Shown here: positions 29,101-50,100 of the stretch, piece by piece | Position numbering within the stretch: the first letter of the stretch is position 1 | How the letters are laid out: each line of letters starts with the position of its first letter | Source: an uncultured Planctomycetaceae bacterium | Lineage (GTDB): Bacteria; Planctomycetota; Planctomycetia; Isosphaerales; Isosphaeraceae | Direction: 5' to 3' | Assembly: GCA_963833985.1 (NCBI GenBank) | Contig: CAWIAD010000002.1 | Coordinates: 5,920,001-5,984,000 of the forward strand | DNA: 64,000 nucleotides | Program-made: the position numbers and the translations under genes | Notes under the pieces: model-generated | Databases searched by the model: none | Told to the model about the DNA's origin: nothing | Seen by the model: only the letters and a program-made list of their open reading frames with translations

Positions 29101-29856
29101 TCTGCCCATGCAACGGCAGCCCTTCAAACGGTCGCCCGGGAGCGGCAGCTTACCCTGAGCACGCTGATCCAGGGGGCGTGGGCCTTAGTACTGAGCCGCT
29201 ACAGCGGTCAGGACGAGGTCCTTTTTGGGGTAACCGTCTCCGGACGCCCCTCCGAGCTTCCCGGCGTGGAGTCCATTGTCGGGATGTTCATCAACGTGCT
29301 CCCCGTGCGCGTCGTCGTGAACGAGGAATCTCTGCTGATACCGTGGTTGCGCCGGCTTCAAATGAACCTCGTCGAGCTGCGCCGCTTCGAGACCGTTCCC
29401 CTTTCACGGATCCAGACATGGAGCAACGTTCCGCCCGGGCAGCCCTTGTTCGAGAGCTTCGTCACCGTCCAGAACCTGCCCTTCGTTGATTCACTCCAGC
29501 GGCACGCCAACCGGCTCGGCATTGAATCGGCACGGTGGATCGAGCGAACTAATTACCCCATCGCCGTGACGGCTTTGCCCGGCGCGGAGCTATCCATCAA
29601 GATCACCTTCGACTCCGTGCGTTTCCTGCCGCATAGCGTCGAGGGCGCGCTCGATCACCTTCAGAGACTGCTCGAGGGAATGGCGTCTGATTGCGAGCGC
29701 CGGCTGATCGACTTGCCCTGGATGACGGAGATCGAGCAAGAGTTCCTGATCGGAAAATCGAATCAGTGCCAGGCTGACCTCGTGGCTGATGATCTGGATA
29801 CCGGCCACTCAGACGAACCAGCGATCGAGGCCTTCATCACAGACCCGGCCGAGTAG
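20150..29856 (+). CDS. Hybrid PKS-NRPS: FAAL-ACP-KS-AT(degenerate)-ACP-C-A(Orn/Dab-like)-PCP-C; single frameshift near 25907
   Basis: [60 protein letters not shown] in place of GHSx[19 protein letters not shown], continuing after the shift as [13 protein letters not shown]...[34 protein letters not shown]. Confidence 0.9.
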
Positions 29857-29869
29857 CGCGGAGACAACG

Positions 29870-32800
29870 ATGAGCCAGCTCGAGAGTGATGTGGAACCTG
29901 TCCTGGAGCCTCAGCCAGGACGTAACTCGCAGGCCGATCCAGAGCGCAGCGATCCAGTGCGGACCGAGCCAAGGCCTGTCCACAGGCGGATCGAGGAACA
30001 GGCCGAGCGCAGGCCCGATGCGATCGCGGTTAGCGGCGCGGGTGGCTCACTCAGCTATGCGCAACTGAATGCGCAGGCCAACCGACTGGCCCGGCGCTTA
30101 CGCCGCCTGGGTGTTGGCCCCGAGGTGCTGGTGGGGCTTTGCACTGCGCAGCCCGCGACTGGTGGCGGCCTTGCTGGGCGTGCTCAAGGCGGGTGGAGCC
30201 TATGTGCCGCTGGACCCGTCCTATCCGGCGGAAAGGCTCTCCTACATGCTCGAGGACGCGCGCGTCGGGCTGCTCTTGACCGAAGAGCGGCTGCTGGAAA
30301 AGCTTCCTCGATCCAACGCGCAGGTCCTCTGCCTGGACCGCGATCAGCAAGTGATCGACCGCGAGAGCGCTGCGAGTTTCCAGAGTGGCGTCGTAACGGG
30401 AAATACCGCGTATGTTCTTTACACTTCCGGCTCGACCGGAAAGCCCAAGGGGGTGCAAGTCACGCATGCTGGGCTGACGAACTTGCTGCTATCGATGCGT
30501 CGTCTGCTCTCCATCAGCCAGGAAGATTGCCTGCTCGCGGTGACGACGCTGTCGTTCGATATCGCCGCACTCGAGATCTTCCTGCCCTTGCTGGTTGGTG
30601 CCTGTGTGGAGATTGTGGACCGCGACGAGGCTGCTGACGGGGTGCGGCTTGCGGCGCGGCTTGACGAGCGCGAAATCACGTTCCTCCAGGCGACCCCCGC
30701 GTCCTGGCGCATGCTGCTAGAAGCGGGCTGGCAGGGCAAGGCGACGCTGACCATGCTGTGCGGGGGCGAGGCACTTCCGCGCACGCTGGCGGACCGGCTG
30801 GTCACGAAAGGGCAGGCACTCTGGAATCTGTACGGGCCAACCGAGACGACGATCTGGTCATCGGCCTGCCAGATCGTGGCCGGAGAGCCTTCCATTTCGA
30901 TTGGTAAGCCGATCGCGAACACACGCCTGCTGGTCCTCGACAAGCGTTTGCGGGTCGTACCGATCGGAGTGATCGGCGAGCTTTACATTGGAGGCATGGG
31001 CCTGGCCCGCGGCTATCTGGGCCGCCCGTCACTCACGGCCGAGCGGTTCATCCCCGACCCGTTCGGCCTCCCGGCCGGTGGGCGGCTTTACCGTACCGGA
31101 GACCTTGCTCGCCGGCGCCCCGATGGAACGCTCGAATGTCTAGGTCGGGTTGATCATCAGGTCAAGATCCGCGGCTTTCGTGTGGAACTCGGTGAGATCG
31201 AGGCTGCGCTGACGCAGCACCCCGGCGTGAGCCAGGCCGTCGTCACCGCGCGCCCGGATTCCAGTGGCGAGATGAGCCTGGCCGCCTATGTGGTGCCCCG
31301 CGCCGGGGATAGCCCGGCCAGCGCGGCCGAATGGCGCCGCTGGCTGGTCGGGGTCGTCCCGGAGTACATGGTTCCCACCGCGTTTGTGATGCTGGAAGCG
31401 CTCCCGATGACACCCAATGGGAAGATCGATCGGCAGGCCCTTCCCGATCCCGAGCTGGCGGGAAAACCAGCGAGCGTCAGCTTTGTCCCGCCACGCGGGC
31501 CGATCGAGGAGGCGATTGCCGAGCTCTGGACCGAACTGCTCGGCGACGGCCCCTTCGGCGCCCATGACAGCTTCTTCGATCGGGGTGGCCATTCGCTGCT
31601 GGCCGTGCGTTTGCTGGCGCGAATTCGCCAGACCTTCGATGTCGAGACGCCGCTCAAGGACTTTCTTGAGGAACCGACGCTTGCGCGGCTGGCGCGCCTG
31701 GTGGAGCAGTGCTTGAAGGAAGGAACGGGGCACCAGGCTCCGCCGATCGAGCAAGTCCATCGCCAGGGACCATTGCCGGCGTCCTTCGCACAGCAACGTC
31801 TCTGGTACCTCGACCAGCTTGATCCCGGTCGCGCTTCCTACAACATTCCTGTCGCTGTACGCCTTGCGGGCCGGCTTGATCTTCGCGCTTTCGAGCGCGC
31901 GCTCAATGAAACGATCAGGCGGCACGAGGTGCTGCGCACCATCCTCGTTGACGAAGGCGGAATTCCCCATCAGGTCATCATGCCCCGGCTGGAGATCACA
32001 CTGGTCCCCGATGACCTCAGCGCGCTTCCTGAGCCGCTTCGCGAGGGACGTGCCGTCGAGCGGCTTCGTGAAGAAGCGGAGCGGCCTTTCGATCTGGCGC
32101 GCGGACCGCTCATCCGAGCCGGTCTGCTGCGGCTGGCCGAGCTGGAGCACATCGTCATCGTCGTGATGCATCATGCCGTATCCGACGGCTGGTCGGTCGG
32201 CATCCTGATTCGCGAAATGTCGGCACTCTACGAGGCGTTCCGGCATGACCAGCCCTCCCCGCTCCCCGAACCGTCCATCCAGTATGCCGATTATGCAGTC
32301 TGGCAGCGGAACTGGCTGACCGGCGACGTCCTCCAGGCCCACCTTGATTACTGGACCAGGCAGCTCGGCGGCCTCGCGGACCTGGACCTGCCTACCGACC
32401 GGCCCCGACCGCTAGTGGCCAGCCAGCGCGGCGGAGAGCGGTCCATGAAGCTGGGGAAGAGCACGCTCGAAGGACTGCGCTCCCTCGGCCGCCAGGAGGG
32501 AACCACCCTGTACATGACGCTGCTCGCGGCATTCCAGGTCTTGCTGCACCGTCACTCGGGGCAAGAGGACTTCGCGGTCGGCACCCCCATCGCCGCACGA
32601 ACTCAACCGGAGCTGGAGGACCTGATCGGCTTCTTCGTGAGCACCCTGGTCATGCGCGGCGATCTCTCCGGTGATCCCAGCTTTCGCGCATTACTCAAAA
32701 GGCTGAGACAGACGGCCATCGAGGCTTACGCTCATCAGGACCTGCCGTTCGAGATGCTCGTGACCGTGCTGCAAACCCGCCGCGACCCAAGCCGGAGTCC

Positions 32801-33218
32801 CCTTTTCCAGGTGATGTTCGCCCTCCAGAATGCGCCGCTGCCCGCACTTCAGTCACCCGAGCTGCAACTCACTCCACTGAATCCCACGAGTGGGACCTCG
32901 AAGTTTGATCTGACATTGTTCGCCGTGGAAGAGCCTCAGGGCTTGCACCTGACCATGGAATACAGCACGGATCTGTTCGAGGCTGCCACGGTCGATCGCA
33001 TGCTCGACCGCCTGGCGATTCTCGTCGAGGAGATCATCGCCTATCCCGACCGTCCGATCGGGGCACTGAACATGCTCTCGGAGGAAGAACGGAGGCAAGC
33101 GATCGCGGACTGGAATGCCGGGGGTGGCGGCGAAGCCTTTACATCATTTGATGATCTCGACGACGAGGTCCTTGTCGCTCAGGAACAGTCGCCAGAGGGG
33201 CTCGTGGGCGACGGATAG
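29870..33218 (+). CDS. NRPS A(Gly)-PCP-C(terminal); frameshift near 30145
   Basis: GGAG SD and ATG 29870. A core motifs with code [29 protein letters not shown]. No TE. Confidence 0.9.
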
Positions 33219-33265
33219 CGCGGCGCAACGCAGGCGAGAGAGTTTTCAAGAGGCATGGCTCATCA

Positions 33266-34942
33266 ATGACTTTGATTCGTTTCTTGTTGCAGTCCTCGTA
33301 CAAGACCTTGCTCCTCTGTGCACTTGCGGGCGCGGCCGGGGGAGCCGCGGGCATCGCATTGATCGCGCTGATCCAGAATGAGCTGGCGAGCGAAGCATCG
33401 TCGCCAGGTCCGATGTGGTTGGCTTTCGGGGCAATCTGTCTGATCTCGTCCGCGGCGCGGGTTCTTGGGCAGATTGGCATGGTGAGGCTAGGCCAGAGGT
33501 CGGTGGCGCGGCTGGGGCTTTCCATCGTCCGTCGTACCCTGGAGCTACCCGTCGAGAGGTTTCAGTCGATGAACTCTTCATCGCTGCTCGCCGCCTTGAC
33601 TGAAGATATTGCGGTCATCGCCAGCGCGCTGGTGGGAATCCCGCAACTCTGCATCAATGTCCCGATCGTGATTGCGTGCCTGGCGTACATTGGTTGGCTG
33701 TCGCCGGCCATTCTCGTCTCCGGACTGGGCTGTGCCGCGCTCTCGATTGCCGCATACGTGGCACTGTCGGCTCGTGCCTCGGCGCAGCTCCGCGAGGCGC
33801 GGGCAGAGCGGGATCTGCTCGTCGATCATTACCGGACCTTGATTGGCGGGTTTCGCGAGCTCAAGCTTCACCGGGGGCGCCGCGGGGCCTTTCTCGAGGA
33901 ATTGCTGGAACCTACCACGAACTCGGTCCGGGACCGGATGGTCGGCGGCCTCAGCAGCTTCGCGGTTGCCGAAGGTTGGAGCCAGCTTGCCTTCTTCGGA
34001 TTCATCGGCATCGTGCTCTACGCCATGCCTTCGATCGTGCCGGTCACTCGTGCAACTCTCATATCGGCTGTTCTGATTGTTCTTTACCTCATGGGCCCGA
34101 TCGACATCATTCTCAACTGGGTGCCGGTTCTGGGCAGAGCGAGGACATCCCTCGACAAGCTGAAGTCCCTGCTACCGGAGCTCGATCAATGCCGGACGGG
34201 TGCTGCACTCCCCTCCGCTCCGTGTCACGGGCTGGCGTTCTCACGGTCACTTTGTCTGGAAGGCATCACGTTCACTTACCACCAGAAAGGAGGTGACGCA
34301 GGCTTCACTCTCGGGCCCATCGACCTGACGCTCCGGCCGGGAGAGATCGTGATGGTGACCGGCGGAAACGGAGCCGGCAAGACCACGCTGGCCGAGCTCG
34401 TCTCGGGTCTTTACGTGCCCTCCTCAGGCCGCATCAGGCTGGATGGCCGCGCATTGGCCGCTGAGGACCGCGAGGCCTATTGTCAGCTTTTCTCGGTGGT
34501 CTTCGCCGACGGTCAACTCTTCTCTAACCTGCTCGGGCTTCCCGCGGATGACATCAAGGCGAAGGCTCGTGACGGACTGGAACGGCTCGGGCTTGCGGAA
34601 CAGGTCTCGCTGCGCGGGCTTTCCTTTTCGACGGTCGATCTGTCCCAGGGGCAGCGCGGGCGGCTGGCGCTTCTTGGAGCGTGGCTCGAGGATCGCCCCG
34701 TTTACATCTTCGACGAATGGGCCGCCAACCAGGATCCCTCGTTCAAGAGGTTCTTCTACCGCACGCTGCTGCCCGAGCTGAAAGCCGCGGGGAAGTCCGT
34801 CCTGGTCATCAGCCACGATACCCACTATCTGGACAGCGCCGACCGCCTTGTCCGCCTACAAGACGGCCGACTGCTCGAAGAGTGCACCATGGAGATCGGG
34901 GGCGGTTGGACCCAGGGAGATTGCCAGGAACCTGATGAATGA
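33266..34942 (+). CDS. Cyclic-peptide export ABC transporter (SyrD/PvdE/YojI family)
   Basis: TM domain with GFRELKL, then GGNGAGKTT, LSQGQR and FDEWAANQDP.FKR.FY. Confidence 0.92.
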   Translation: MTLIRFLLQSSYKTLLLCALAGAAGGAAGIALIALIQNELASEASSPGPMWLAFGAICLISSAARVLGQIGMVRLGQRSVARLGLSIVRRTLELPVERFQSMNSSSLLAALTEDIAVIASALVGIPQLCINVPIVIACLAYIGWLSPAILVSGLGCAALSIAAYVALSARASAQLREARAERDLLVDHYRTLIGGFRELKLHRGRRGAFLEELLEPTTNSVRDRMVGGLSSFAVAEGWSQLAFFGFIGIVLYAMPSIVPVTRATLISAVLIVLYLMGPIDIILNWVPVLGRARTSLDKLKSLLPELDQCRTGAALPSAPCHGLAFSRSLCLEGITFTYHQKGGDAGFTLGPIDLTLRPGEIVMVTGGNGAGKTTLAELVSGLYVPSSGRIRLDGRALAAEDREAYCQLFSVVFADGQLFSNLLGLPADDIKAKARDGLERLGLAEQVSLRGLSFSTVDLSQGQRGRLALLGAWLEDRPVYIFDEWAANQDPSFKRFFYRTLLPELKAAGKSVLVISHDTHYLDSADRLVRLQDGRLLEECTMEIGGGWTQGDCQEPDE

Positions 34943-36228
34943 AAAAAATCCTCTTTGTCTTGAGTCTGTTCTGGGGTGGTGGAATCTTCGGCCTCTGGTA
35001 CTGGAATGACCATCAAACCCAGCGCGTCGTGTTTCGCACCGTCGCGATCAAGCGAGGCGACCTGCGGTCAACGATCAACGCGACGGGGACGATCGAGCCG
35101 GAAGAGGTCGTCGACGTCGGGGCCCAGGTTGCCGGGATGCTCCAGAGCTTCGGTGAGGATCCAAACCGTGCAGGCAAGCCGATCAGCTACGGCTCACGCG
35201 TTGAGCAAGACACCGTCCTGGCCCGGCTCGAGAATGCCCTGTTCCGCACCCGCGTGGATCAGGCGCGCGGCAGCCTCTCCAAGTCCGAGGCCGATATCGA
35301 GCAAGCACAAGCGAAGCTGCGCCAGGCCGCGCGCGAGCTGGAGCGAACCAGGAAGCTCAGAGCGCGCGGAGGGGCTGTCATCGCGGAGCAGGAATACGAG
35401 GTCGCCATGGCAAACTTCGAGTCGGCCAAGGCCGTCGTGAACGTCTGTCAGAGCGAGCGAGCCATCGCCCAGTCCAACCTCGAGGAGGCCACCGTCAACC
35501 TGGGATACACGACCATCCGATCGCCGGTGAAGGGAGTCATCATCGACCGCCGCGCCAATATTGGCCAGACTGTCGGGGCGAGTCTGAATGCCCCGAGCCT
35601 CTTCCTCATTGCCAAGGATCTGAGCCGCCTGGAGTTATGGTCATCGGTGAATGAGACGGATATCGGTTCGATCCACGAGAACCAGGTTGTCCAGTTCACG
35701 GTCGGCGCTCTACCGCAAGAGACGTTCCAGGGAAGGGTCTCGCAGATCCGCCTGAACGCGAGCATGACGCAGAACGTCGTGACCTACACGGTGGTGGTCG
35801 CGGTGGATAACTCCGCGGGCCGGCTGCTCCCCTACCTGACCGCCCGGCTGCAATTTGAGGTGGAGGCGAGAAAAGGGGTTCTGCTTGTGCCCAACGCCGC
35901 GCTGCGATGGCAACCGCGCCTCAAGGACGTCGATCCGGAGGCCACGGAAGTGTATACCCAGGTTCAGCATGCCGCGGCCCGGCCCGATGATGCGGTTACC
36001 AGCTCCGGCTCCGCGTCCAGCCACTCCGGATGGCTCTGGCTGCGGCACGGCGAACATGTCAGGCCAATCGCGGTTCACGTCGGGCTGTCTGACGGGTTCA
36101 TGACGGAAATCGCCGGGAAGGATTTGAATGAGGGGAGCCAGGTGGTCGTGGGCGCCAGCCGGCTCGACTCCGAGCCCGACGCGCTATCGATCCTGCCGCA
36201 CACGTGGGGCGAATCGGAGAAGAAATGA
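34939..36228 (+). CDS. macA: MacA-like periplasmic adaptor
   Basis: ATGTIEP..VDVGAQV.G, TIRSPV.G and NVVTYTVV motifs. Confidence 0.87.
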   Translation: MKKILFVLSLFWGGGIFGLWYWNDHQTQRVVFRTVAIKRGDLRSTINATGTIEPEEVVDVGAQVAGMLQSFGEDPNRAGKPISYGSRVEQDTVLARLENALFRTRVDQARGSLSKSEADIEQAQAKLRQAARELERTRKLRARGGAVIAEQEYEVAMANFESAKAVVNVCQSERAIAQSNLEEATVNLGYTTIRSPVKGVIIDRRANIGQTVGASLNAPSLFLIAKDLSRLELWSSVNETDIGSIHENQVVQFTVGALPQETFQGRVSQIRLNASMTQNVVTYTVVVAVDNSAGRLLPYLTARLQFEVEARKGVLLVPNAALRWQPRLKDVDPEATEVYTQVQHAAARPDDAVTSSGSASSHSGWLWLRHGEHVRPIAVHVGLSDGFMTEIAGKDLNEGSQVVVGASRLDSEPDALSILPHTWGESEKK

Positions 36229-38449
36229 CGCGCGCCGACCAGGACCAGCCCGGGGAGCTGATCAGGCTCCAGGACATCCACAAGACCTACACGCGCGGGG
36301 CGATCGAGGTCCCCGTGCTCAGGGGCCTGTCACTCACAATCCAGCGGCGCGAGATGGTCGCGCTCATGGGCTCGTCGGGTTCAGGCAAGACCACCCTCAT
36401 CAATATCCTGGGATTCCTCGACCGCCCCACAAGCGGGAGGTACTGGCTCGAGGGCCGGGATGTCACCCGGCTCGGTGCACCGGAGCGCGCCTGGCTGCGT
36501 TCCATGCAAGTTGGTTTCGTTTTTCAGAACTTCAATCTGCTGCCCCGGATGACAGCGATCGAGAATGTGATGATGCCGCTCAGCTACGGCGCGCATGACT
36601 TCGCGCAACGCGAGTGCCGCGCCGCTGCCCGATCGCTGCTCGAACGCGTGGGCCTGGGTGACCGCCTTGATCATGAGCCCGCGCGCCTCTCCGGCGGGGA
36701 ACAACAACGCGTGGCGATCGCCCGGGCGCTGATCAACGGGTGCAGCCTGCTGATCGCCGATGAGCCGACCGGTAACCTTGATTCGAAGACGGGAGAGGAG
36801 ATCCTCTCGCTCTTCCGCGAGCTCAACCTCGAAGAAGACATCACGATCCTGCTCGTGACTCACGATCCGGCCGTCGCCGCGCATGCGGGACGCATCATCC
36901 GCATGCGCGACGGGTTGGTCTTCGATGTCGAGCGCGCCATCCCATCAGCACAGGATCCGACGCGCCTGGCCGATGCCCCCGTGAACGAGACCCCCGCGCG
37001 GGAGCGGACCGCTTCGGCCGCGCCCGGCGCGCCTCGGCCTGCGTGCGGACTTCTCGAAGTAAGCCCTGGATCTCTGCACGTTTTCTGGCACGCACGACGT
37101 CGACGGCCATCCGTTCGCTCCGCCGCAATGCCCTGCGTTCCGCATTGACGACGCTCGGCATCATCATCGGCGTGGGTTCATTGCTGGCCATCGCGGAAGT
37201 TGGCAAGGGAGCCTGGTCGGCCATTCGCCTGCTCCTGACGAAGACGGGAGTCGATAACATCGTGATCCAGGCCGGTGCGGCGTCTCGCAACGGCGTGAGC
37301 CTGGGGAGCGGCAGCGTCAAGACTCTGACGCCCGAAGACGCGACGGCGATGCTGCACGAATGCCCGAGCATTGACAGCCTGGCGCCTCTGGTCTTCACCC
37401 GGCGGCAGGCGGTCCATGGCAACAAAAACTGGATCCCCAGCACGTTCGTCGGCACGACTCCGAGCTACCTCCGGGTCCGGGAGTGGGAGGACATGGACGA
37501 AGGAGAGCCATTCACCGAGGAGGACGTCCAGAAGATTGCGATGGTCTGCATGCTGGGCGCAACGGTGGCCCACGAACTCTTCGGAGAAGAATCGCCGGTC
37601 GGGCAGGAAATCTACGTGAGCGACGTGCCCTTGCGGGTGGTGGGCGTCCTGAGCCGCAAGGGGGCTGATATCGTGGGTGAAGATCAGGACGACATCCTGG
37701 TTGCCCCCTGGACGACACTGAAGTTCCGGGTGAGTTCCCAGGCGGCCACGTCGGCGGATCATAATCCCCAGCAAGAGCTGTCCGAGACGCAGGCGATTCC
37801 GTCTCGTCGCTACCCGCAGGGCCACTCTGCGTCGTTTCCGACCCGATCCCTGGCACAGATGCTTGACACGCCCAGGCTGGAACGGCTCGCGAACGTCGAT
37901 TCGATTCTCGTTCGTGCCGTGTCAACCAACGAGATCCCGCCGGCCATCGCGCAGATCACCCGCGTCCTTCGCGAACGGCATCGAATCGCGCCGGGGACGG
38001 CCGCCGACTTTGCCGTTCGCGACTTCACCGAAGTGGTCCGCGCTGTCAAGGGGACCGTGACGCTTGTCGCGGAGCTGCTCCTCTGCGTTGCGCTCATCTC
38101 GCTGGTCGTGGGCGGCATCGGGATCATGAACGTCATGCTCGTCAGCGTGACCGAGCGCTATCGTGAGATTGGCCTGCGCATGGCGGTTGGAGCACGGTCG
38201 CGCGATATCCTCCAGCAGTTCCTCTTCGAGGCCGTGGTCCTATGCATGCTGGGGGGTGCGGCGGGCCTCGCGGCCGGCCGGAGCGCCTCGCTGCTTGTGC
38301 GGCTTATTGCGCACTGGCCCACCGAGCCGTCACTGGCCGCGGTGCTCGCCTCCGTCTCGGTCTCCGCCACGATCGGCGTGATCTTCGGGTATTACCCGGC
38401 GTGGAAGGCCTCACGACTCGACCCGATCGAGGCTCTGCGATTCGAGTGA
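36225..38449 (+). CDS. macB: MacB-like ABC ATPase-permease fusion; frameshift near 37040
   Basis: GSSGSGKT, LSGGEQQRV and DEPTGNLD, then RSALTTLGIIIGV, MNVMLVSVTER.REIG and PAWKASRLDPIEALRFE. Confidence 0.87.
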
Positions 38450-38702: not shown

Positions 38703-40284
38703 CTTGTCATTCCCGGAAAACTGCATCCATGCATATGCAATTAGTAGTGTACATGTGCATTGATTCTCGCGCACTCAAGCTTTGCTCCCCTTACCAGCAG
38801 CCGGAGCACCTTCATGCCGCGCCAGAGCGTGATCCAGCCGGGCATCCCGTCTCGTCGCCGGTTCATATGCCCACCGAGCCGCCCCAGGGCAAGCAACACG
38901 TCTGCCACGGTCTTGAGTTCACGCTCGACCGCCAGACCGAGCACCTCCAGCTCGGGCTCCTCCAGGCCAGTGCTTGCCGCGGGAGCTCCCGGGAAGCCCT
39001 TGCCGAGCTCGCGCAGATCCAGCAGCCGAAGCGCCACCACGCTCATCACGGCGATCGCAGCGAACAATCGGTTGCCCCGCTCCAGCTGCAAATCCTCAGC
39101 CTTCATGCCCGTCTTGAGGCCCTTGTGAAACTCCTCGATCAGAAAGCGTGTGCCGTAGTCCATCACCACCATGATCGCAGCGCTGAAGCTCTCCGTCGGG
39201 CTGTCCGTGTAGAGCACCCATTCCAGCGGCGCGACGCCTTCAGGCGGGTCTTGCTCCCAGACCCGCACGAACCAGCCGTCGATCGGCTCGCCCGTGCCGG
39301 CCGCGCGGCCCGCACGCTCGGGTGCCCGCACGCGCACCGGACCACAACTGATCAGGAGCTTCGCGCGCTGCGCGGCCTTACCATCGCGGCCACGCAGGTC
39401 CAGATACATTCCCCCCACGGGCGCCACGCCCACGATGTGGTCGAAGACCAGCCCGAGCCGCTTACCATCGGCCGGATTGAGCAGAATGCGATTTTGACTG
39501 ACCCGGATCACGAAACCGTGGCCTGCCGCGCGACAGGACTCCATGTACTCATGAATATCTGCCTCTCGATCGGCGACGCGCACCCAGCGGACCTCCGGGT
39601 TCTCTGGCGCCGGGCCAATCCGCTTGCCCGACTCGAGCCAGCGATCCGACTCCCGATCCCGGATCTGCCGTTGCCGCGATCCGGCCTGTTTCGGCGTGTC
39701 GGGATCCCGCGGGATGCGGATGAGGTATTGCTGGTCGGCGAGCCCCAGGATCGTGACCGGGGGCCGACGACCGCTCGCATCAGGTACGGGCGACGAGTCG
39801 GCACGCATCGCAAGGATGGAGTGGAGGAGAAAGCCCTGCTGTCCCGGCTCCGAGTCACCAATCGGCCCAAGCCCGGGCATTGGCTGCTTGCGATGAGAGA
39901 ACGAGGGAAACGTGGTGTCTTCGATGAGGAGATATCGCCCCGGTTTGCGGAGTTCGGCCATCACCAGTCGGCGGTGAGTCGCCTGGATCGCATCGGGGAC
40001 CACCTCGCGTTCGTCGAGGAGGTCATAGGTCGCGTTGATGTCGTACTTGCGGGTGAACAACTCGGGGATCATCTTCCCGGGTTGCTCAGCGAGGGCCTCC
40101 GCAAACGCCATGAGGCGATTCCTCCTGGTGCAATGGCCGAGCCTGATCCCGTCGAACTGCATCCGAGCCCATTGGGCGGGCGGGGACTGGTGGACTGACA
40201 TCCCTGTGAACATAGTTGGTTCCATCCATGAGCATGCTGGTAGAATCCAGCCAACCATGTTAACAAATTCTCGGGAATGACAAG
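38703..40284 (-). mobile_element. IS4-family (IS50/Tn5-like) insertion sequence, about 1.58 kb
   Basis: Terminal IRs CTTGTCATTCCCG / CGGGAATGACAAG enclose a single transposase gene. Confidence 0.88.
38741..40225 (-). CDS. IS4-family DDE transposase
   Basis: IEDTT, VADREADI, Y..RFLIEEFHKGLKTG and LGGH..R..DG.PGWITLWRG motifs. Confidence 0.93.
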   Translation of the reverse strand: MEPTMFTGMSVHQSPPAQWARMQFDGIRLGHCTRRNRLMAFAEALAEQPGKMIPELFTRKYDINATYDLLDEREVVPDAIQATHRRLVMAELRKPGRYLLIEDTTFPSFSHRKQPMPGLGPIGDSEPGQQGFLLHSILAMRADSSPVPDASGRRPPVTILGLADQQYLIRIPRDPDTPKQAGSRQRQIRDRESDRWLESGKRIGPAPENPEVRWVRVADREADIHEYMESCRAAGHGFVIRVSQNRILLNPADGKRLGLVFDHIVGVAPVGGMYLDLRGRDGKAAQRAKLLISCGPVRVRAPERAGRAAGTGEPIDGWFVRVWEQDPPEGVAPLEWVLYTDSPTESFSAAIMVVMDYGTRFLIEEFHKGLKTGMKAEDLQLERGNRLFAAIAVMSVVALRLLDLRELGKGFPGAPAASTGLEEPELEVLGLAVERELKTVADVLLALGRLGGHMNRRRDGMPGWITLWRGMKVLRLLVRGAKLECARINAHVHY

Positions 40285-40303
40285 CGCAGAGCGTGGGAAC
40301 GAG
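40285..40303. repeat. REP-like arm CGCAGAGCGTGGGAACGAG (right flank of IS)
   Basis: Reverse complement is CTCGTTCCCACGCTCTGCG, which matches the left flank. Confidence 0.65.
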
Positions 40304-40629
40304 GGACCAACCTATGCTCGTACGCAACTTATCGCTATTTCAACGGTATTGCCCTTATGGGGCAGACCCTGCGCCTGAGTTCCCCTGACCGCGACGATTC
40401 CGGCGGAGCCGTTCGTGCGGAACGACTCTCTACTTGATCGAGTACGCCAAACCGTTTCCGGATGATGCCGGTGAACCACCGCCGCGCTTTCCGTGTCGTC
40501 TGAAGGATCAAGGCGGGCCCATGGACTCCTTCATTTCGGCAGGAGATGATGGGAGATCGCACCGGACGGCGCTGTGATCCGGTGACGGGAGCTGGCCGGG
40601 TTCGGGAGTCGAGAGCGGGGTGTGGGACG

Positions 40630-42030
40630 ATGCTGCTGACGATCACGACCACGCACCGTCCGGCCACGGACCTCGGCTACCTGCTGCACAAGCACCCCGA
40701 GCGGTTCCAGAGCTACGAGCTGAGCTTCGGCCGGGCGCATGTCTTCTACCCGGAGGCGACAGCCAAGCGCTGCCGGGCCTGCCTGCTGCTCGATGTCGAT
40801 TCGGTGGGCACGGTGCGCCGCAAGGGTCAGGCGGAAGGCTTACTCGACCAGTATGTCAACGACCGGCCCTACGTCGCGTCCTCCTTTCTGAGCGTGGCGA
40901 TCTCCCAGGTCCTCGGTTCGGCCCTCCAGGGCCGGTGCCAGGACCGCCCGGAGCTGGCCGAGACCCCGCTACCACTGGTGGCCCGGCTCGATGTCCTGCC
41001 CGTGCGCGGTGGGGAGCGGTTCTTGCGGAAGGTGTTCGAGCCGCTGGGCTACGCCGTCGAGGCCCAGCCACACCCGCTCGACGAGCGTTTTCCGGCGTGG
41101 GGCGAAAGCCCGTACTTTTCGGTCACCGTGGCCGGGGTCGCCACGCTTTCGGAACTGCTGACGCATCTGTACGTCCTGGTGCCGGTTTTCGACAACTCCA
41201 AGCACTACTTCGTCGGCGACGAGGAGCTCGAAAAGCTGCTCACCCGGGGGAGCGGCTGGTTGGCGACTCACCCCGAGCGGGAGGAGATCACCCGGCGCTA
41301 CCTGAAGTTCCAGCCCAGTCTCTTCCGACAGGCGCTCGCCCGGTTGATGCAAGAGGAGCAGCCGTCCGAGGCGGAAGACGACGGGAAATCTCCCGGCGAG
41401 CGGGCCGAGGAAGTGCTGGAAAAGCCCCTGAGCCTGCACGACCAGCGCATCGGGGCCGTCCTGGCGGGGCTACGCTCGTGCGGGGCGAAGCGCGTGCTCG
41501 ACCTGGGCTGCGGTGAGGGCAAACTCCTGCGGGAACTGCTCAAGGAGAGACAGTTCGAGGAGATCGTCGGCATGGACGTGTCCATCCGCTCGCTGGAGAC
41601 CGCCCGCGACCGGCTCAAGCTCGACCGTTTGCCCGAGAAACAGGCCGCCCGGCTCAAGCTGGTCCACGGATCACTGATCTATCGTGACCGGCGCCTGGAA
41701 GGGTTTGATGCGGCCGCGGTGGTCGAGGTCGTCGAGCACCTCGACCCCTTCCGGCTCACGGCCTTCGAGCGCGCCGTCTTCGAGTTCGCCCGCCCCGGCA
41801 CGGTGATCCTGACCACGCCCAATAAGGAGTACAACGTCACCTGGGAGAACCTCGGGGCCGACAGGCTGCGCCATCCCGACCACCGGTTCGAGTGGAGACG
41901 AGACGAGTTCCGGTCCTGGGCCGAAGGTGTCGCCGGGCGGCACGGCTACTCGGTACGGTTCCTGGCGATCGGGCCGGCAGACGAGGTGCTGGGGCCACCC
42001 ACGCAGATGGGAGTGTTCGAGCGTGAATAA
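40630..42030 (+). CDS. hen1: Hen1 3'-terminal RNA ribose 2'-O-methyltransferase
   Basis: MLLTITTT..PATDLGYLLHKHP, QYVNDRPYVASS, VLDLGCGEG, EVVEHL, TTPN.EYN and RH.DHRFEW motifs. Confidence 0.96.
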   Translation: MLLTITTTHRPATDLGYLLHKHPERFQSYELSFGRAHVFYPEATAKRCRACLLLDVDSVGTVRRKGQAEGLLDQYVNDRPYVASSFLSVAISQVLGSALQGRCQDRPELAETPLPLVARLDVLPVRGGERFLRKVFEPLGYAVEAQPHPLDERFPAWGESPYFSVTVAGVATLSELLTHLYVLVPVFDNSKHYFVGDEELEKLLTRGSGWLATHPEREEITRRYLKFQPSLFRQALARLMQEEQPSEAEDDGKSPGERAEEVLEKPLSLHDQRIGAVLAGLRSCGAKRVLDLGCGEGKLLRELLKERQFEEIVGMDVSIRSLETARDRLKLDRLPEKQAARLKLVHGSLIYRDRRLEGFDAAAVVEVVEHLDPFRLTAFERAVFEFARPGTVILTTPNKEYNVTWENLGADRLRHPDHRFEWRRDEFRSWAEGVAGRHGYSVRFLAIGPADEVLGPPTQMGVFERE

Positions 42031-42862
42031 CCCGAAATGCCCCGTGGAGTTGGCTGATTCGAGAAACGATCCGCGTCGTGTGGAGGAACTGATCTCAGCA
42101 GCCCTGAAAGCGCCTGATACTGACGAGACCACCTACTGGGATGCGATCGAAGCTCTGCACTGGCGGGGGAATCGGGACGTTCTGGACCAGGCGTCTCCTC
42201 TGTGTCACAGCCCGTGCTCCGTGGAACGCAGAGTCGGTGCAGACATTCTCGGGCAATTGGGGTGCCCTGATCGCACTTTCCCCGAGGAGTGTTGCCGTAT
42301 CCTGACGGGACTCTTGGAAATTGAGCAAGAAACCAGTGTGGTTTCAGCGGCACTCGTCGCCCTTTCGCACCACAGGGCTCCCGACGCAATCGGGCTGGTA
42401 TCACGGTTTCTCCACCACGCTGACGCCGTGGTGCGTCATGCCGTGGTCCTGGCGCTGATGGGCTACGAGACTGCGAATGCCATTGAGCCACTCAGGGAAT
42501 TGACGAGAGACCCGGATGCTCACGTCCGAGACTGGGCGACTTTTGCCTTGGGAACACAGGTGGACGTAGACACACCAGAGGTTCGACAGGCACTTGTTGA
42601 AAGGCTGACCGATGAAGATGCCGACGCTCGTGGGGAAGCGTTCGTCGGCTTGGCCAGACGGAGAGACCGGCGGCTGCTCCTGGCACTCCAGGCAGAGCTC
42701 GCTTCGGATTCGGTCGGGACGCACAGCGTCGAAGCTGCTTCCCTGATAGGCGATCCGTCCCTCTATCCCTTCCTCATCGATCTTCGGGGTTGGTGGGACA
42801 AGAATGGTGACACCGAACTGCTCCACGAGGCCATCGAGGCATGCCGGCCCGATTCCGGGTAG
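42023..42862 (+). CDS. HEAT-repeat protein, YibA-like
   Basis: GTG overlaps the hen1 stop. RRVGADILGQL, D.D..VRDWATFAL and RGEAFVGLARRRDRR are HEAT repeats. Confidence 0.8.
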   Translation: MNNPKCPVELADSRNDPRRVEELISAALKAPDTDETTYWDAIEALHWRGNRDVLDQASPLCHSPCSVERRVGADILGQLGCPDRTFPEECCRILTGLLEIEQETSVVSAALVALSHHRAPDAIGLVSRFLHHADAVVRHAVVLALMGYETANAIEPLRELTRDPDAHVRDWATFALGTQVDVDTPEVRQALVERLTDEDADARGEAFVGLARRRDRRLLLALQAELASDSVGTHSVEAASLIGDPSLYPFLIDLRGWWDKNGDTELLHEAIEACRPDSG

Positions 42863-42902
42863 GCCACGTCCGGTCGCCATGAGATCGTTGGTTGACGATT
42901 CC

Positions 42903-45478
42903 ATGAACATCAAGATACCCAACCTCAGCCTTGTCATCCTGGTTGGCCCCAGCGGGTCGGGCAAGAGCACGTTCGCCCGCAGGCACTTCAGGCCCACCGA
43001 GGTCCTCTCGTCCGACGCCTGCCGGGGGATGGTCTCGGACGAGGAGAACGACCAGACCGTCACGAAGGACGCCTTCGAGGTGCTCCGGTTCATCGCCGGG
43101 AAGCGGCTCGCCCTGGGGCGGTTCACCGTGATCGACGCCACCAGCGTCCAGCCCGAGGCGCGCAAGCCGCTCGTGGAACTGGCACGTCAGTATCACGTGC
43201 TGCCCGTGGCGATCGTGCTCGACCTCCCGGAGCGAACTTGCCAGGAGCGTAATGCCGGGCGCAGTGACCGCGGTTTTGGCCCCCACGTCATCCGCAACCA
43301 GAAGTCCGACCTGCGGCGCGGGCTCGGGGGGCTCCAGCGTGAGGGCTTCCGTCACGTTTACGTGCTCAAGACGCCCGAGGAGGTGGAAGCCGCAGCGGTC
43401 GAACGGGTGCCGCTCTGGAACGACCGGCGGGACCAGCACGGGCCCTTCGATATCATTGGCGACGTCCATGGCTGCTACGACGAGCTGGAAGCATTGCTCA
43501 CCCGGCTCGGGTATTCCCACACCGGTCCAGCAGGCGCATGGTCGCATTCCGGCGGCCGGAAGCTCGTGTTTCTGGGCGACCTCGTCGACCGCGGCCCGCG
43601 CATTCCGGAGACGGTTCGCCTGGTCCTGGATAGCGTGCGGGCCGGCTCGGCCCTGTGTGTTCCCGGCAATCACGATGTCAAGTTCATGCGTGCGGTCTGG
43701 GGAAAGAACGTCCAGATCACACACGGACTCGCGGACTCGCTGAGCCAGTTCCAGGCCTACGAAGAGCACTATCACGGCTTCAGCCGCGTGGCGGCCGACT
43801 TCATCGACGGCCTGGTGAGCCACTACGTCCTGGACGACGGCAAGCTCGTCGTCGCCCACGCCGGGATGAAGGAGGAGATGCAAGGCCGGGGTTCGGCGAA
43901 GGTCCGTGATTTCGCCCTTTACGGCGAGACGACCGGTGAGACCGATGAGTTCGGACTACCGGTGCGGTTCGACTGGGCATCAGATTACCGGGGCCGGGCG
44001 ATGGTTGTCTACGGCCACACGCCCGTGCCCGAGCCCGACTGGCTCAACCGCACGGTGAACATCGACACCGGCTGCGTCTTCGGCGGCAGGCTCACGGCCC
44101 TCCGTTACCCGGAGAACGAGTTCGTGTCCGTGCCGGCCGCGCGGACCTACTGCGAACCGGCCCGGCCATTCCTTGCTCCCGAGCAGCAGGCGCCCGCTCT
44201 GTCGGCCCAGCAAGTCCACGACGAGGTGCTCGACGCCGAGGACGTGCTCGGCAAGCGAATCATCCCGACCCGGCTGCGCGGGAATGTCACGATCCGGGAG
44301 GAGAACGCCACCGCGGCGCTCGAGGTGATGAGCCGGTTCGCCGCCGACCCGAGGTGGCTAATCTATCTGCCCCCGACCATGTCGCCGTGCGAGACCAGCC
44401 GGGCCGAGGGCCTGCTGGAGCACCCGGCCGAGGCGTTCGCCTACTACCGCAACGAGGCAGCCCCGCAGGTCATCTGCGAGGAGAAGCACATGGGCTCCCG
44501 CGCCGTGGTCGTGGTGTGCCGTGATGAGCGGGCCGCACGGCAGCGGTTCGGCGTGACGACCGGCGAATCCGGAATCGTGGTCACCCGCACGGGGCGCCGG
44601 TTTTTCCATGACGACGACCTGGAGCGGTCGTTTCTCGACCGCGTGCGGGGGCGCTCACCGCCGCCGGCCTGTGGGAGAAGCTGGACACGACCTGGGCGTG
44701 CCTGGACTGCGAGCTGCTGCCGTGGTCGGCCAAGGCCCAGGAGCTGCTGCGAACCCAGTACGCCGCCGTGGGGGCAGCGGGCTCAGCGTCGCTGCCACAA
44801 GCTGTCCTGGCCCTCGCGGAGACAGGTCGACGTCTTGAAGGTGAGGAGCGGGCGAAGCTCGCCGAGATCGAGGTCCGGTTTCGGGTGAAGGAGCAAGGCA
44901 TTGACCTGTTCGTGGCCGCCTACCGGCAGTACTGCTGGACAGTCGAAAGGCTCACCGACCTGAAGCTGGCCCCGTTTCACCTGCTCGCCACGGAGGCGCG
45001 CGTCCATACGGACAAGGACCACCTCTGGCACATGACCACGCTGGCCGAGGCTTGCCAGGCCGACCCCGAATTGTTGCTGGCGACCCGGTACCGGCTGGTG
45101 GAATTGACCGACCAGGCGAGCCAGGACGAAGCGATCGCCTGGTGGCACGAGCACACGGGACGGGGCGGTGAGGGAATGGTCGTGAAGCCCCTGTCGTTCA
45201 TCCACCGGGGTCGCCGCGGCCTGAGCCAGCCCGCCGTGAAGTGCCGCGGGCGCGAGTACCTGCGGATCATCTACGGTCCCGACTACACGACCGGCGAGAA
45301 CCTGGAGCGCCTGAGCTCACGCGGCCTGGGCCGCAAGCGGACGCTCGCCCTCGGTGAGTTCGCCCTGGGCATCGAGGGTCTGGAGCGGTTCGTGCGTGGC
45401 GAACCCCTGCGCAGGGTCCACGAGTGCGTCTTCGGCGTGCTGGCCCTGGAGAGCGAGCCCGTTGATCCGAGGTTGTAG
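42903..45478 (+). CDS. pnkp: Polynucleotide kinase-phosphatase-ligase Pnkp; frameshift near 44650
   Basis: Kinase GPSGSGKS. Phosphoesterase GDVHG, GDLVDRG, GNHD and IDTG. Ligase EEKHMGSR, EGMVVKP and C-terminal ALESEPVDPRL. Confidence 0.95.
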
Positions 45479-47141: not shown

Positions 47142-50100
47142 TCAGACTGCTTCGGGTTCGTCCGCCGCCGGCTCCGATGCACGGCCCGCGTAGAGCAACC
47201 AGTAAGTGACCGGAATCACGAACAGGGTGAAGATGGTCGAGGCGACCAGCCCGAAGATGAGCGACCAGGCCAGTCCGGAGAAGATCGGGTCGAGCGTGAT
47301 GGGGATGCTCGAGAGCATGGCCGCGCTGGCGGTCAGGAGGATGGGCCGCAAGCGAACCACGCGGCTCTCCATGATGGCGTCGAAGAGCGACCGTCCCCGC
47401 GCCACCGACTGGTGGATGAAGTCAACCAGGATGATCGAGTCCCGCGTGACGATCCCCGCCAGGGCGATCATGCCGATCATGGCCGTGGCGGTGAAGAAGA
47501 CCGGGTCCGCGAAGCCGCCGACGGTCTGCCCGGACATGCGGTTGAGCAGCCAGAATCCAGGCATGACGCCGAGGACCGTGAGAGGAATGGCCAGCATGAC
47601 CACGAGCGGTACGACGAAGGAGTTCGTCTGGGCGACGAGGATCACGTAGATCATCAGCATCGCCGCGCCGAAGGCCAGGCCAAGGTCGCGAAAGACGTCG
47701 ATGGTGATCTTCCACTCCCCTTCGCCGGCGAACTCGACGCGCGTGCCCTCCGGCACCGACCAGGCAACGCCCCCGCCGTTCTGGAAGTAATTCCGCTGCT
47801 CCAGCGGCCGCGGCTGCGCATCGGCCACCCATCCCTGGGACTCCGTCCCGGCGGGTTTCCGGTCGAAGGTGACATCAAGGACGCACTCGGCAGGCGGCCG
47901 GCCAGCGGTCTCGGCGAACACGTAGGCCACGCGCTGAAGGTTCTTGTGGTAAATCGTCTGGTCCACCCTCCGGTCCTGCCAGCGGCCGATCTCGGCGAGT
48001 GCGACCATGTGGCCGGTCCGGCCCTTGACCCGGATCGTGGAGAGGTCCTCGGCACTCGAGCGAATCGCCCGCGGCAGCCGCAGCTCGATGGCCAGAGGGT
48101 TACGTTCCCCCTTGAGCCGGACTGTACCCGCGCTGCGCCGCCGAGCACCATCTGGAGCGTATGCGCCACCTGTTCGACCGAGACGCCGTTCAGCGCGGCT
48201 TTCTCCTGGTCCGCCACGAAGACGAGCGTGGGAGCGGCCGCCTCGACGGTGTCGTCAATCTCGATCACCCCGGGCTCCTTGCTCAGGCGCCGCGCGACCG
48301 TCCCGGCGGCCGAGATCAACTCGGGGTACGTCTGGTCCATGCGCCCGTAGATTTCCGCCACGATGGAGGAGAGCACCGGAGGGCCGGGCGGCAGCTCGAC
48401 AATCTTCACGCGTGCGCCATGCTTTTCGGCAATCCGCGTGAACGGCTCGTGCAGCCGCAGGGCCAGGGCGTGGCTCTGGGCGGAGCGCTGCTTCTTGGCA
48501 ACGAGGTTGACCCGGATCTCCGCCTGGTGCGGCATCTGCCGCAGGTAATAGTGGCGCACCAGGCCGTTGAAATCCATCGGGCTGGACACGCCCACGTAGC
48601 TCGTGAAATTGGTCACCTCGGGAACGCGGGCGAGCTCCGATTCGATCTCCTGCACAACCACGTTCGAGCGCTCGAGCGTGGTGCCCTCGTCGCAGTCGAG
48701 CACCACCAGAAGCTCGTTCTTGTTGTCGAACGGCAGCATCTTCAGGGGCACGGACCGCATGGCCGCCAGGCCCATCGCGGCGACGGTCAGGACGCCGATG
48801 AACAGCAGGAAGGCCGCGGCCGTGAGCCGCGAGTGCAGCAGGGGCTTCATCAAGGGATAAAAGATCTTGTACAGCCGGGTCTGGCGAATGGCGTCCGGGT
48901 CGTCGGGATCATGGCCGTGATGCCCGCCCTCGCCCCCGTGCTGGAACTTGCGGTGCAGCACCTGGTAGGCCATCCACGGCGTGATGGTGAAGGCGACGAC
49001 CATCGACATCAGCATGGCCACGGGCACGTTGAGCGCCATGGGGGCCATGTACGGGCCCATCATGCCGGTGATGAAGAACATCGGCAGGAAGCTGACGATC
49101 ACCGCCAGCGTGGCACTGATCAGGGGAGGCCGGATCTCGGCCACGGCTTCGAGCACGACATCGCGGGTGGCCCTGCCGCGCATGGCGAAGTGCCGGGCGA
49201 TGTTCTCGACGTCCACGATGGGGTCGTCCACGAGCAGGCCGAGCGAGAGGATCAGCGCGAAGAGCGTGACACGGTTGATGGTGTACCCGAAGAGCAGGTT
49301 CACTCCCAGCGTCAGCCCGAAGACGACCGGCACGGCCACCGCCACGATGAACGCCTCGCGCCAGCCCAGGCTCAGGGTCAAGAGCGCGACGACGATGAGG
49401 ATGGCGACCCAGAGGCCCTCGACCAGCTCGTTGACCTTGTCGTCGGCGGTCAGTCCGGAGTTGCGCGTGATGACCATTTCCACATCGGCCGGCACGACGT
49501 CGTTGCGCAGCTCTGCGGCCGCCTGGAGGACGGTCCGCGCCACGGCCACGGCGTTGGTCCCTTTCTGCTTGGCGATGGCGATCGTCACGGCCGGCTGCGT
49601 GACCGCCAGGGACGGATCGCCAGGGACGGGGTTGGGCTCGTGGCCCTGGCCCTCCGGCTCGATCCGTGTGCCCGTCGCGCCGTGTTCCGCTTCCAGGCCT
49701 CGGGCCGGTCCCCAGCCATGGCGAACATAGGTGACCACCTCGGCGGGGCCGTCGCGCAGGGACGCGACGTCCTTGAGGAATACGGGCCTGTCCTGGTACA
49801 CGCCGACCACCAGCTCCGGCAGTTGCTCGGGGCGTTCGATGACCATTCCCGCCCGCACCTGGAAAAGCGCGTCATTGCGCGTGAAGCTCCCCGCCGGCAG
49901 CACGACGTTTGCGCCCTGGAGCGCTTGCTGGACGTCCAGCGGACTGATGCCGTGGGCCTGGAGCCGCTCGGGGTCGAGATCGACGCGCAGCATCCTGGGC
50001 TCGCCGCCGACCACGTAGGCCCGGGAAACGTTGGAAAGGGCGGCCAGGCGCTGAACCACCTCCTCGCCGATCCGTCGCAGTGCGTGGCTGCCCTGGCTCT

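Follow-up and report, generated by a model that had tools for sequence, protein, structure and literature searches.

What does a gene for a HEAT-repeat protein do between the two genes of a bacterial RNA-repair operon? This question is raised by a stretch of 64,000 nucleotides (nt) from an uncultured Planctomycetaceae bacterium (GenBank assembly GCA_963833985.1, contig CAWIAD010000002.1, positions 5,920,001 to 5,984,000; hereafter the window), in which hen1 and pnkp are separated by a gene for a relative of the Escherichia coli protein YibA. The textbook system of RNA repair in bacteria, Pnkp-Hen1, has so far been regarded as a machine of two proteins, with the characterised enzymes from Clostridium thermocellum and Anabaena variabilis being encoded in a two-gene operon. 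The gene described here is a recurrent third member that is found in five phyla and yet is optional; its product belongs to the family of the immunity protein YibA, and members of this HEAT family are fused in nature to enzymes acting on tRNA or ADP-ribose. Together these findings point either to an adaptor that serves RNA repair or to a direct connection between the neutralisation of toxins and the repair of their damage. With a probability of somewhat less than one half (about 0.45) we favour the HEAT protein as an optional, putative non-catalytic binding partner, either adaptor or regulator, of the repair pathway.

Recurrence of the hen1-HEAT-pnkp arrangement

All three genes are co-oriented on the plus strand (Table 1), and the layout that the original prediction had read from the letters alone was borne out: the HEAT gene starts with a GTG, overlaps the hen1 stop by 8 nt and is followed after a 40-nt spacer by the ATG of pnkp. 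The identity of the operon also holds, as both flanking genes match the equivalog models of the system. Hen1 aligns with TIGR04074 from end to end (704.1 bits, cut-off 340) and shows Pfam Hen1_L (372.5 bits, profile positions 1–241 of 242) plus methyltransferase domains, and Pnkp matches TIGR04075 in two pieces that are described further below. A GGAG is located 9 nt 5' of the GTG, and this start is supported by homologs of equal length such as P0002 (279 amino acids (aa), 84% identity, 100% coverage). The richer use of A/T-ending codons that had been noticed in the middle gene is seen in its GC content at third codon positions (GC3) of 0.643 versus 0.869 for hen1 and 0.866 and 0.869 for the two pieces of pnkp, and the overall GC content dips to 0.59–0.61 across 42000–42800. 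A promoter scan gave no promoter-like site, a terminator scan gave 5 terminator-like sites versus 2.9 expected, and PADLOC returned generic HEAT/ARM and methyltransferase matches only. The host genome has a size of 10.16 Mb on two contigs, and the closest named relatives of the window proteins are Isosphaeraceae planctomycetes.

To see how often this arrangement occurs we surveyed homologs of the HEAT gene in one-genome-per-species contigs, which gave 322 confirmed loci, and analysed the best 80 of them (loci are numbered with L, genomes with G and protein clusters with P). The HEAT gene is adjoined by hen1 and/or pnkp in 16 of these 80 loci, 11 of which hold both genes; the remaining linked loci have pnkp at a contig end (L025), hen1 only (L035 and L065) or nothing more than pnkp remnants (L027 and L029). 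As the 16 linked loci are distributed over five phyla, being found in Planctomycetota, an Alcaligenaceae metagenome-assembled genome (MAG; L048), Armatimonadota (L058), Chloroflexia (L072) and Verrucomicrobia (L093), the insertion is no isolated case. Within the genus of the window's bacterium the pair hen1-HEAT was found in G013, which is identical to L036 (Aquisphaera insulae), and in G004, where an intact pnkp is parted from the HEAT gene by three further open reading frames (ORFs). The junction itself is conserved, with the HEAT start overlapping the hen1 stop by 4–11 nt in 10 of the 11 loci examined, the window included, and by exactly 8 nt in the window, L048, L072, L036, G004 and L074; only in L058 no overlapping HEAT start was present near the hen1 stop. 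Because the hen1-HEAT-pnkp arrangement recurs in five phyla, its middle gene likely encodes a helper of RNA repair.

A second kind of association comes from natural fusions. In four protein clusters (P0122, P0123, P0124 and P0125) a Met-tRNA formyltransferase (Fmt) with complete N and C domains carries a C-terminal HEAT part, and these Fmt-fused copies have net charges from -20 to -32. A fusion of an ADP-ribosylglycohydrolase with HEAT is located directly between hen1 and pnkp in the Chloroflexia MAG (L072:5927-7810). A separate glycohydrolase gene lies near the HEAT homolog of L033.

Relationship of the HEAT protein to YibA

The original prediction had noted a resemblance to YibA along the whole length of the protein, and the sequence and structure searches agree with it. 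Pfam HEAT_2 matches five stretches of the protein (115.3 bits), and its AlphaFold model (mean predicted local distance difference test of 92.2) consists of 17 helices. The top sequence match in the PDB is YibA itself (1OYZ, E 1.9e-19), with residues 43–272 aligned colinearly to 45–275 of 280, followed by synthetic consensus HEAT proteins with E-values of 8e-15 and weaker, and BLASTP against YibA from E. coli K-12 gave 28% identity over 243 aa (E 8e-28). When the predicted model was used in Foldseek, 1OYZ was again at rank 1 (E 1.8e-10, template modelling (TM) scores of 0.75/0.77, root-mean-square deviation of 3.4 over 264 columns), and deoxyhypusine hydroxylase (DOHH; 4D4Z) followed at rank 6 with a TM score of 0.35, so that the structural search favours YibA over the alternative of a PBS-lyase or DOHH type of HEAT protein.

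Both proteins are also nearly equal in size (280 aa for YibA and 279 aa for the window protein) and their alignment is colinear from end to end. They differ in several respects. The window protein is acidic with an isoelectric point (pI) of 4.77 and a net charge of -21, in line with the family median pI of 4.65 (72 rows), whereas YibA is basic with a pI of 8.65. It reaches 209.5 bits against the YibA equivalog model NF007244 and thus stays below the cut-off of 275, even if the alignment spans positions 34–280 of 285. Finally, it is not encoded behind an Rhs/Ntox34 gene. The family as a whole is large, with 1929 clusters at E<=1e-30.

Tests of a classical immunity function

YibA is to our knowledge the only HEAT-type toxin-immunity protein, and in E. 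coli K-12 its gene comes after rhsA, whose product ends in an Ntox34 domain (146.6 bits). A passage in PMC3150448, citing Vlazny and Hill 1995, states that the yibA ORF neutralises the growth block caused by the RhsA C-terminus, and table rows in PMC3482391 pair Ntox34 with 'Imm-HEAT'. The original prediction had proposed that the window protein is an orphan immunity protein of this Rhs type. Its observation that the window holds no toxin gene proved right, as no match to polymorphic-toxin families was obtained among 33 further window ORFs. Among 217 neighbour ORFs of 56 homolog loci that are not part of repair operons we detected no domain of an Rhs, Ntox or any other polymorphic-toxin family, counting two genes per side and leaving out L022, L023, L044, L052, L067, L078, L085 and L092, in which the HEAT ORF was not called. 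A tblastx comparison of the flanks, which is independent of gene calls and includes these eight loci, revealed no recurrent toxin-like coding stretch within 1.2 kb (78 loci upstream and 80 downstream).

The same was observed at the level of whole genomes. Ntox34 was found in none of 61 related genomes, the window's own included, by a search that detected it in E. coli K-12 as positive control with 149.7 bits. A tblastn search of the own genome with the RhsA C-terminus gave Rhs core repeats only; these repeats lie elsewhere in the genome, which has the YibA-like gene in a single copy. Tox-REase-7 gave no match in the own genome either, by a search without positive control. Thus every test of classical immunity failed and HEAT does not fit the pattern of a classical immunity gene: no toxin is adjacent, Ntox34 was not found in the related genomes and the score lies under the YibA equivalog cut-off, and the first half of the original proposal is not supported in its classical sense. 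Its other half, a putative new subunit or helper of repair, fits the genomic associations better.

Evaluation of the proposed role in RNA repair

In the model that we favour, the HEAT protein would be co-translated with Hen1 and Pnkp and the surface of its solenoid would hold a basic RNA-binding protein, which might be a repair enzyme or another enzyme acting on damaged tRNA, and it could thereby recruit or regulate the bound protein at the repair site. As the HEAT gene is missing from most hen1-pnkp operons the repair enzymes can do without it, and it would provide the core repair system with a specialised function that changes fast. We arrive at the probability given above because consistent associations were found only with RNA-repair genes and tRNA enzymes and because the tests of classical immunity failed.

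Several observations have to be set against this model. To begin with the distribution, HEAT was found in 0 of 39 hen1 loci of an even Planctomycetota sample, and the hen1-bearing genus members G002, G010, G011 and G012 have no HEAT ortholog. At E<=1e-25 a homolog is present in 7 of 401 Planctomycetota genomes (six candidates scored per genome), and among the six of these other than the window's own only one (G228) has hen1, which is unlinked there. When all 15 genomes with a hen1-unlinked homolog are considered, hen1 is missing from 6. The HEAT gene also does not follow its neighbours in evolution, as in 11 complete trios the pairwise distances of HEAT correlate poorly with those of Hen1 (r 0.33) and Pnkp (r 0.27), compared to 0.88 between Hen1 and Pnkp, and the HEAT distance exceeds those of both flanks in 55 of 55 pairs. 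Moreover, the net charge of -21 disfavours direct RNA binding, YibA, the one homolog that has been characterised, is an immunity protein, and the operon as assembled may be non-functional because pnkp is frame-shifted.

Some of these points can be looked at more closely. Compared to the same-genus locus L036 the distance is 0.49 for HEAT and 0.20 and 0.19 for Hen1 and Pnkp, respectively. As a control we used the two copies of RlaP, another gene of such loci: both RlaP-A and RlaP-B track Hen1 and Pnkp (r 0.80–0.92) at an equal mean distance. The low correlation may in part be due to saturation of the HEAT distances. The phylogenetic tree of the HEAT family (72 rows, after exclusion of 12 rows with matches below 200 aa) broadly follows taxonomy, and the repair-linked members are scattered over it with 11 label changes versus a mean of 13.9 after shuffling, a value as low being reached in 12 of 500 shuffles. 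Hen1_L is found elsewhere in 9 of the 15 genomes with an unlinked homolog, compared to a background of 43 of 401 sampled Planctomycetota and 0 of 14 control genomes, a comparison that is inflated by large genomes and shared ancestry. The planctomycete sample also shows how the operon looks otherwise, with hen1 preceding pnkp in 38 of the 38 loci that hold both, a gap of at most 100 nt in 26 of them and RlaP pairs in eight of the sampled hen1 loci. Taken together, the HEAT gene is an optional and fast-changing member of the operon.

The most serious alternative, which we consider possible but doubtful, is that of a decoy or inhibitor: as an immunity-like first layer, the acidic solenoid would attach to an RNA-cutting toxin that enters the cell and block it, possibly as a mimic of nucleic acid, and Hen1 and Pnkp would mend and methylate the RNA that has been cut already. 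It explains the kinship to the toxin-neutralising YibA (by E-value, identity and fold as described above), the strong acidity of the whole family, the fast divergence without tracking of the flanks that sets HEAT apart from RlaP, and the many genomes without hen1. The last point also means that the HEAT protein can act alone, as hen1 is missing from about half of the genomes with a homolog. Its patchy presence within the genus and a GC3 below that of the flanks in 14 of 14 repair-linked loci compared are in agreement with such a function as well. Immunity proteins of the ADP-ribosylhydrolase type exist, and the fusion between hen1 and pnkp in L072 would fit them. However, no toxin gene adjoins any homolog examined, Ntox34 was found in none of the 61 related genomes, the single copy in the genome does not form a polyimmunity array and immunity domains are not usually fused to a housekeeping enzyme such as Fmt. 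The opposite charge of the basic YibA and the score below its equivalog cut-off do not support the decoy either. In its widest form, which is equally tentative, the hen1-pnkp junction would be a cargo slot for conflict-facing modules and HEAT a fast-evolving, nucleic-acid-mimicking blocker of RNA-cutting toxins, so that one transcript might both disarm the toxin and mend and methylate its targets; if true, this would be a two-layer anti-ribotoxin system that carries no toxin of its own.

It is rather improbable that the junction simply tolerates insertions and that HEAT is unrelated, hitch-hiking cargo. Such a passenger would be in line with the codon make-up unlike that of the flanks, with the insertion sequence (IS) just 5' of hen1 in the window and with other genes seen at the junction, namely an IS200 transposase and a PIN gene (L031 and L027), an AbiEii gene (L123) and PP-binding/FGE-sulfatase-like genes (L041 and G004). 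Against it stand the recurrence of one family at this position in five phyla, where the overlap at the junction is conserved, the co-occurrence with hen1 even when unlinked (9 of 15 genomes) and the association with RlaP and a further protein family, X, away from hen1.

We see hardly any chance for an enzyme, be it a phycobilin-lyase-like 'putative lyase' or a DOHH-like di-iron enzyme: RefSeq labels YibA as 'putative lyase containing HEAT-repeat', HEAT_PBS and NblB match weakly (25.6 and 24.6 bits) and DOHH is among the fold matches, but the NblB model NF045915 has a cut-off of 300 bits, DOHH ranks far behind YibA in the fold search, the two-lobed HEAT fold of DOHH has four metal-binding His-Glu motifs compared to only one His-Glu dipeptide in the HEAT protein, and there is no phycobiliprotein context.

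Comparison with known RNA-repair systems

The operon of the window resembles the known Pnkp-Hen1 system in that its proteins match TIGR04074 and TIGR04075 and in that hen1 and pnkp follow each other in one co-oriented operon, and it differs from it by the inserted third gene and by the frame shift of pnkp in the assembly. A helical-repeat protein in an RNA-repair operon has a precedent in Ro/Rsr (TROVE), a HEAT-repeat ring protein encoded in rsr-rtcBA operons, which by analogy might indicate a scaffold role also for the protein described here, as both would be non-catalytic. In contrast to Ro/Rsr, the HEAT protein of the window is about half as large, has an acidic rather than an RNA-binding make-up and shows no TROVE match in Pfam, and RtcB was not found in the 80 HEAT and the 39 hen1 loci (tblastn with the genome's own RtcB).

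RlaP (PF10127) offers a second comparison, as RlaP-expanded operons also have an accessory gene in or beside hen1-pnkp. RlaP is an enzyme with a shown activity, which according to a recent preprint is the addition of nucleotides to damaged RNA 3' ends (10.64898/2025.12.29.696909), and it co-diverges with Hen1 and Pnkp, whereas no catalytic signature is seen in the HEAT protein and its correlations with both are low (0.27–0.33). According to statements in PMC4411300 the Pnkp-Hen1 genes are 'always in the same operon', and the Pnkp1-Rnl-Hen1 complex described there likewise combines Hen1-based repair with a third protein; this third protein is the ligase split from Pnkp, unlike the HEAT solenoid of the window, where Pnkp retains its ligase. 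Among the papers searched we found none that joins Hen1, a HEAT repeat and RNA repair, with the survey of Burroughs and Aravind 2016 being one that may mention the HEAT gene.

Table 1: Positions of the operon and further features in the window, and of members of the protein families X and Y in other loci.
Feature	Position	Strand	Description
hen1	40630..42030	+	466 aa, 3'-terminal RNA ribose 2'-O-methyltransferase; TIGR04074, Hen1_L; ATG at 40630, TAA at 42028-42030
HEAT gene	42023..42862	+	279-aa acidic all-helical HEAT solenoid, YibA (PRK09687) family; GTG at 42023, TAG at 42860-42862
HEAT-pnkp spacer	42863..42902	+	40 nt, HEAT stop to pnkp ATG, read off the sequence
pnkp, first frame	42903..44650	+	kinase, phosphatase and start of ligase domain; TIGR04075, AAA_33, Metallophos, PNKP_ligase positions 1-112; ATG at 42903
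G-run with pnkp frame switch	44647..44651	+	five G; one base fewer than in the frame of relatives
pnkp, second frame	44654..45478	+	remaining ligase domain; TIGR04075, Pfam PNKP_ligase positions 153-377
Tn5-like IS transposase gene	38741..40327	-	528 aa; Tnp_DNA_bind 31.2 bits, Dimer_Tnp_Tn5 21.3 bits
Family X	L105:2876-3814		
Family X	L113:2913-3845		
Family X	L027:1810-2778		
Family X	L024:6041-6955		
Family X	L030:5893-6837		
Family X	L144:7397-8308		
Family Y	L123:5550-6857	-	
Family Y	L056:7602-8930		
Family Y	L083:5360-6754		
Family Y	L041:7596-8321		

Further genes at the hen1-pnkp junction

In order to find other genes that recur together with HEAT we clustered 1090 neighbour ORFs all against all, and only three families were present in more than six loci, namely pnkp (14), hen1 (12) and RlaP (7), the last being cluster 3 and identified as PF10127. 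The tblastx comparison of the flanks gave a similar picture, with hen1, RlaP, pnkp, family X and pairs of close relatives as the recurrent stretches. RlaP pairs share one slot with HEAT in L025, L027, L031, L035 and L058 and in L083 and L084 they adjoin HEAT with neither hen1 nor pnkp in the vicinity; RlaP is missing from the window's genome.

Family X (about 310 aa) gave no match in Pfam, NCBIfam or the PDB. In L105 and L113 it occupies the space between hen1 and pnkp, and it is located 5' of RlaP-RlaP-HEAT in L027 and immediately 5' of HEAT in L024, L030 and G033, the latter three being without hen1 or pnkp nearby. In G033, which belongs to the same family as the window's bacterium, the HEAT gene (L144:4326-7347) is broken by a DDE transposase insertion and has a stop, and its contig also carries hen1 at a distance of 3.3 Mb. 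Family Y (about 440 aa, with a weak HEAT_2 match only) occupies the hen1-pnkp slot of L041, L056 and L123, often directly before pnkp, is close to HEAT and RlaP in L083 and is also present in L113. The hen1-pnkp junction thus collects further accessory genes, and two of their families, X and Y, are new to Pfam and NCBIfam. Proteins from the slot were also compared with the HEAT profile by hhalign, and those of L105 and L102 turned out to be unrelated, while that of L123 shares one repeat-level stretch.

Other occupants were seen in single loci or a few. A PP-binding plus FGE-sulfatase-like gene follows HEAT in the slot of two Isosphaeraceae (L143:5489-8854 in G004 and L041:6269-7576), and the slot of G004 additionally carries an HD plus P-loop kinase gene. 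The AbiEii nucleotidyltransferase toxin gene in the hen1-pnkp slot of L123 (L123:8038-9716, minus strand) is accompanied by a 210-aa partner ORF and lies between two RlaP genes.

The reading frame of pnkp

That pnkp is present at the expected place was confirmed, but it is not intact in a single frame as the original prediction had it, a switch at 44647-44651 having been missed. The kinase, phosphatase and ligase domains are all encoded, but across two frames that meet at a run of five G, with the first matching positions 1–580 of the 851 positions of TIGR04075 (969.5 bits) and the second positions 622–851 (321.9 bits). At the switch the frames read ...FLDRVR and then LTAAGLWEKL..., in agreement with the family consensus RVRxAxxxAGxW. 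A single uninterrupted frame is found in 33 of 34 pnkp genes of other loci, and the contig of one relative from a soil metagenome has an additional letter behind 44649; the metagenome run holds a fraction of 0.07 of the words that were sampled, and its contigs, which stem from relatives, extend over pnkp alone, with none over 42000-42818.

Apparent frame splits were also observed elsewhere in the window, in an NRPS condensation domain (around 25984-26053), in macB (37043-37148), in a resistance-nodulation-division (RND) pump (47654-48008) and in a PSCyt2/PSD1 gene (61977). As several window genes are split between frames, frequent single-base insertion or deletion errors in the assembly are suggested, and the frame change of pnkp is more likely a long-read homopolymer error; alternatively, pnkp could be a true pseudogene.

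Surroundings of the operon

The Tn5-like IS transposase gene ends about 300 nt 5' of hen1, and the IS may have replaced or displaced the promoter region of the operon. On the 5' side of the IS and the repair operon, the region 20150-38449 contains a hybrid polyketide synthase–nonribosomal peptide synthetase (PKS-NRPS) cluster (20150-33215), which is followed by an ATP-binding cassette (ABC) exporter and MacA/MacB-type genes. Close to the beginning of the window an ORF on the minus strand (249-1151) shows a partial phage-integrase domain with 29.7 bits.

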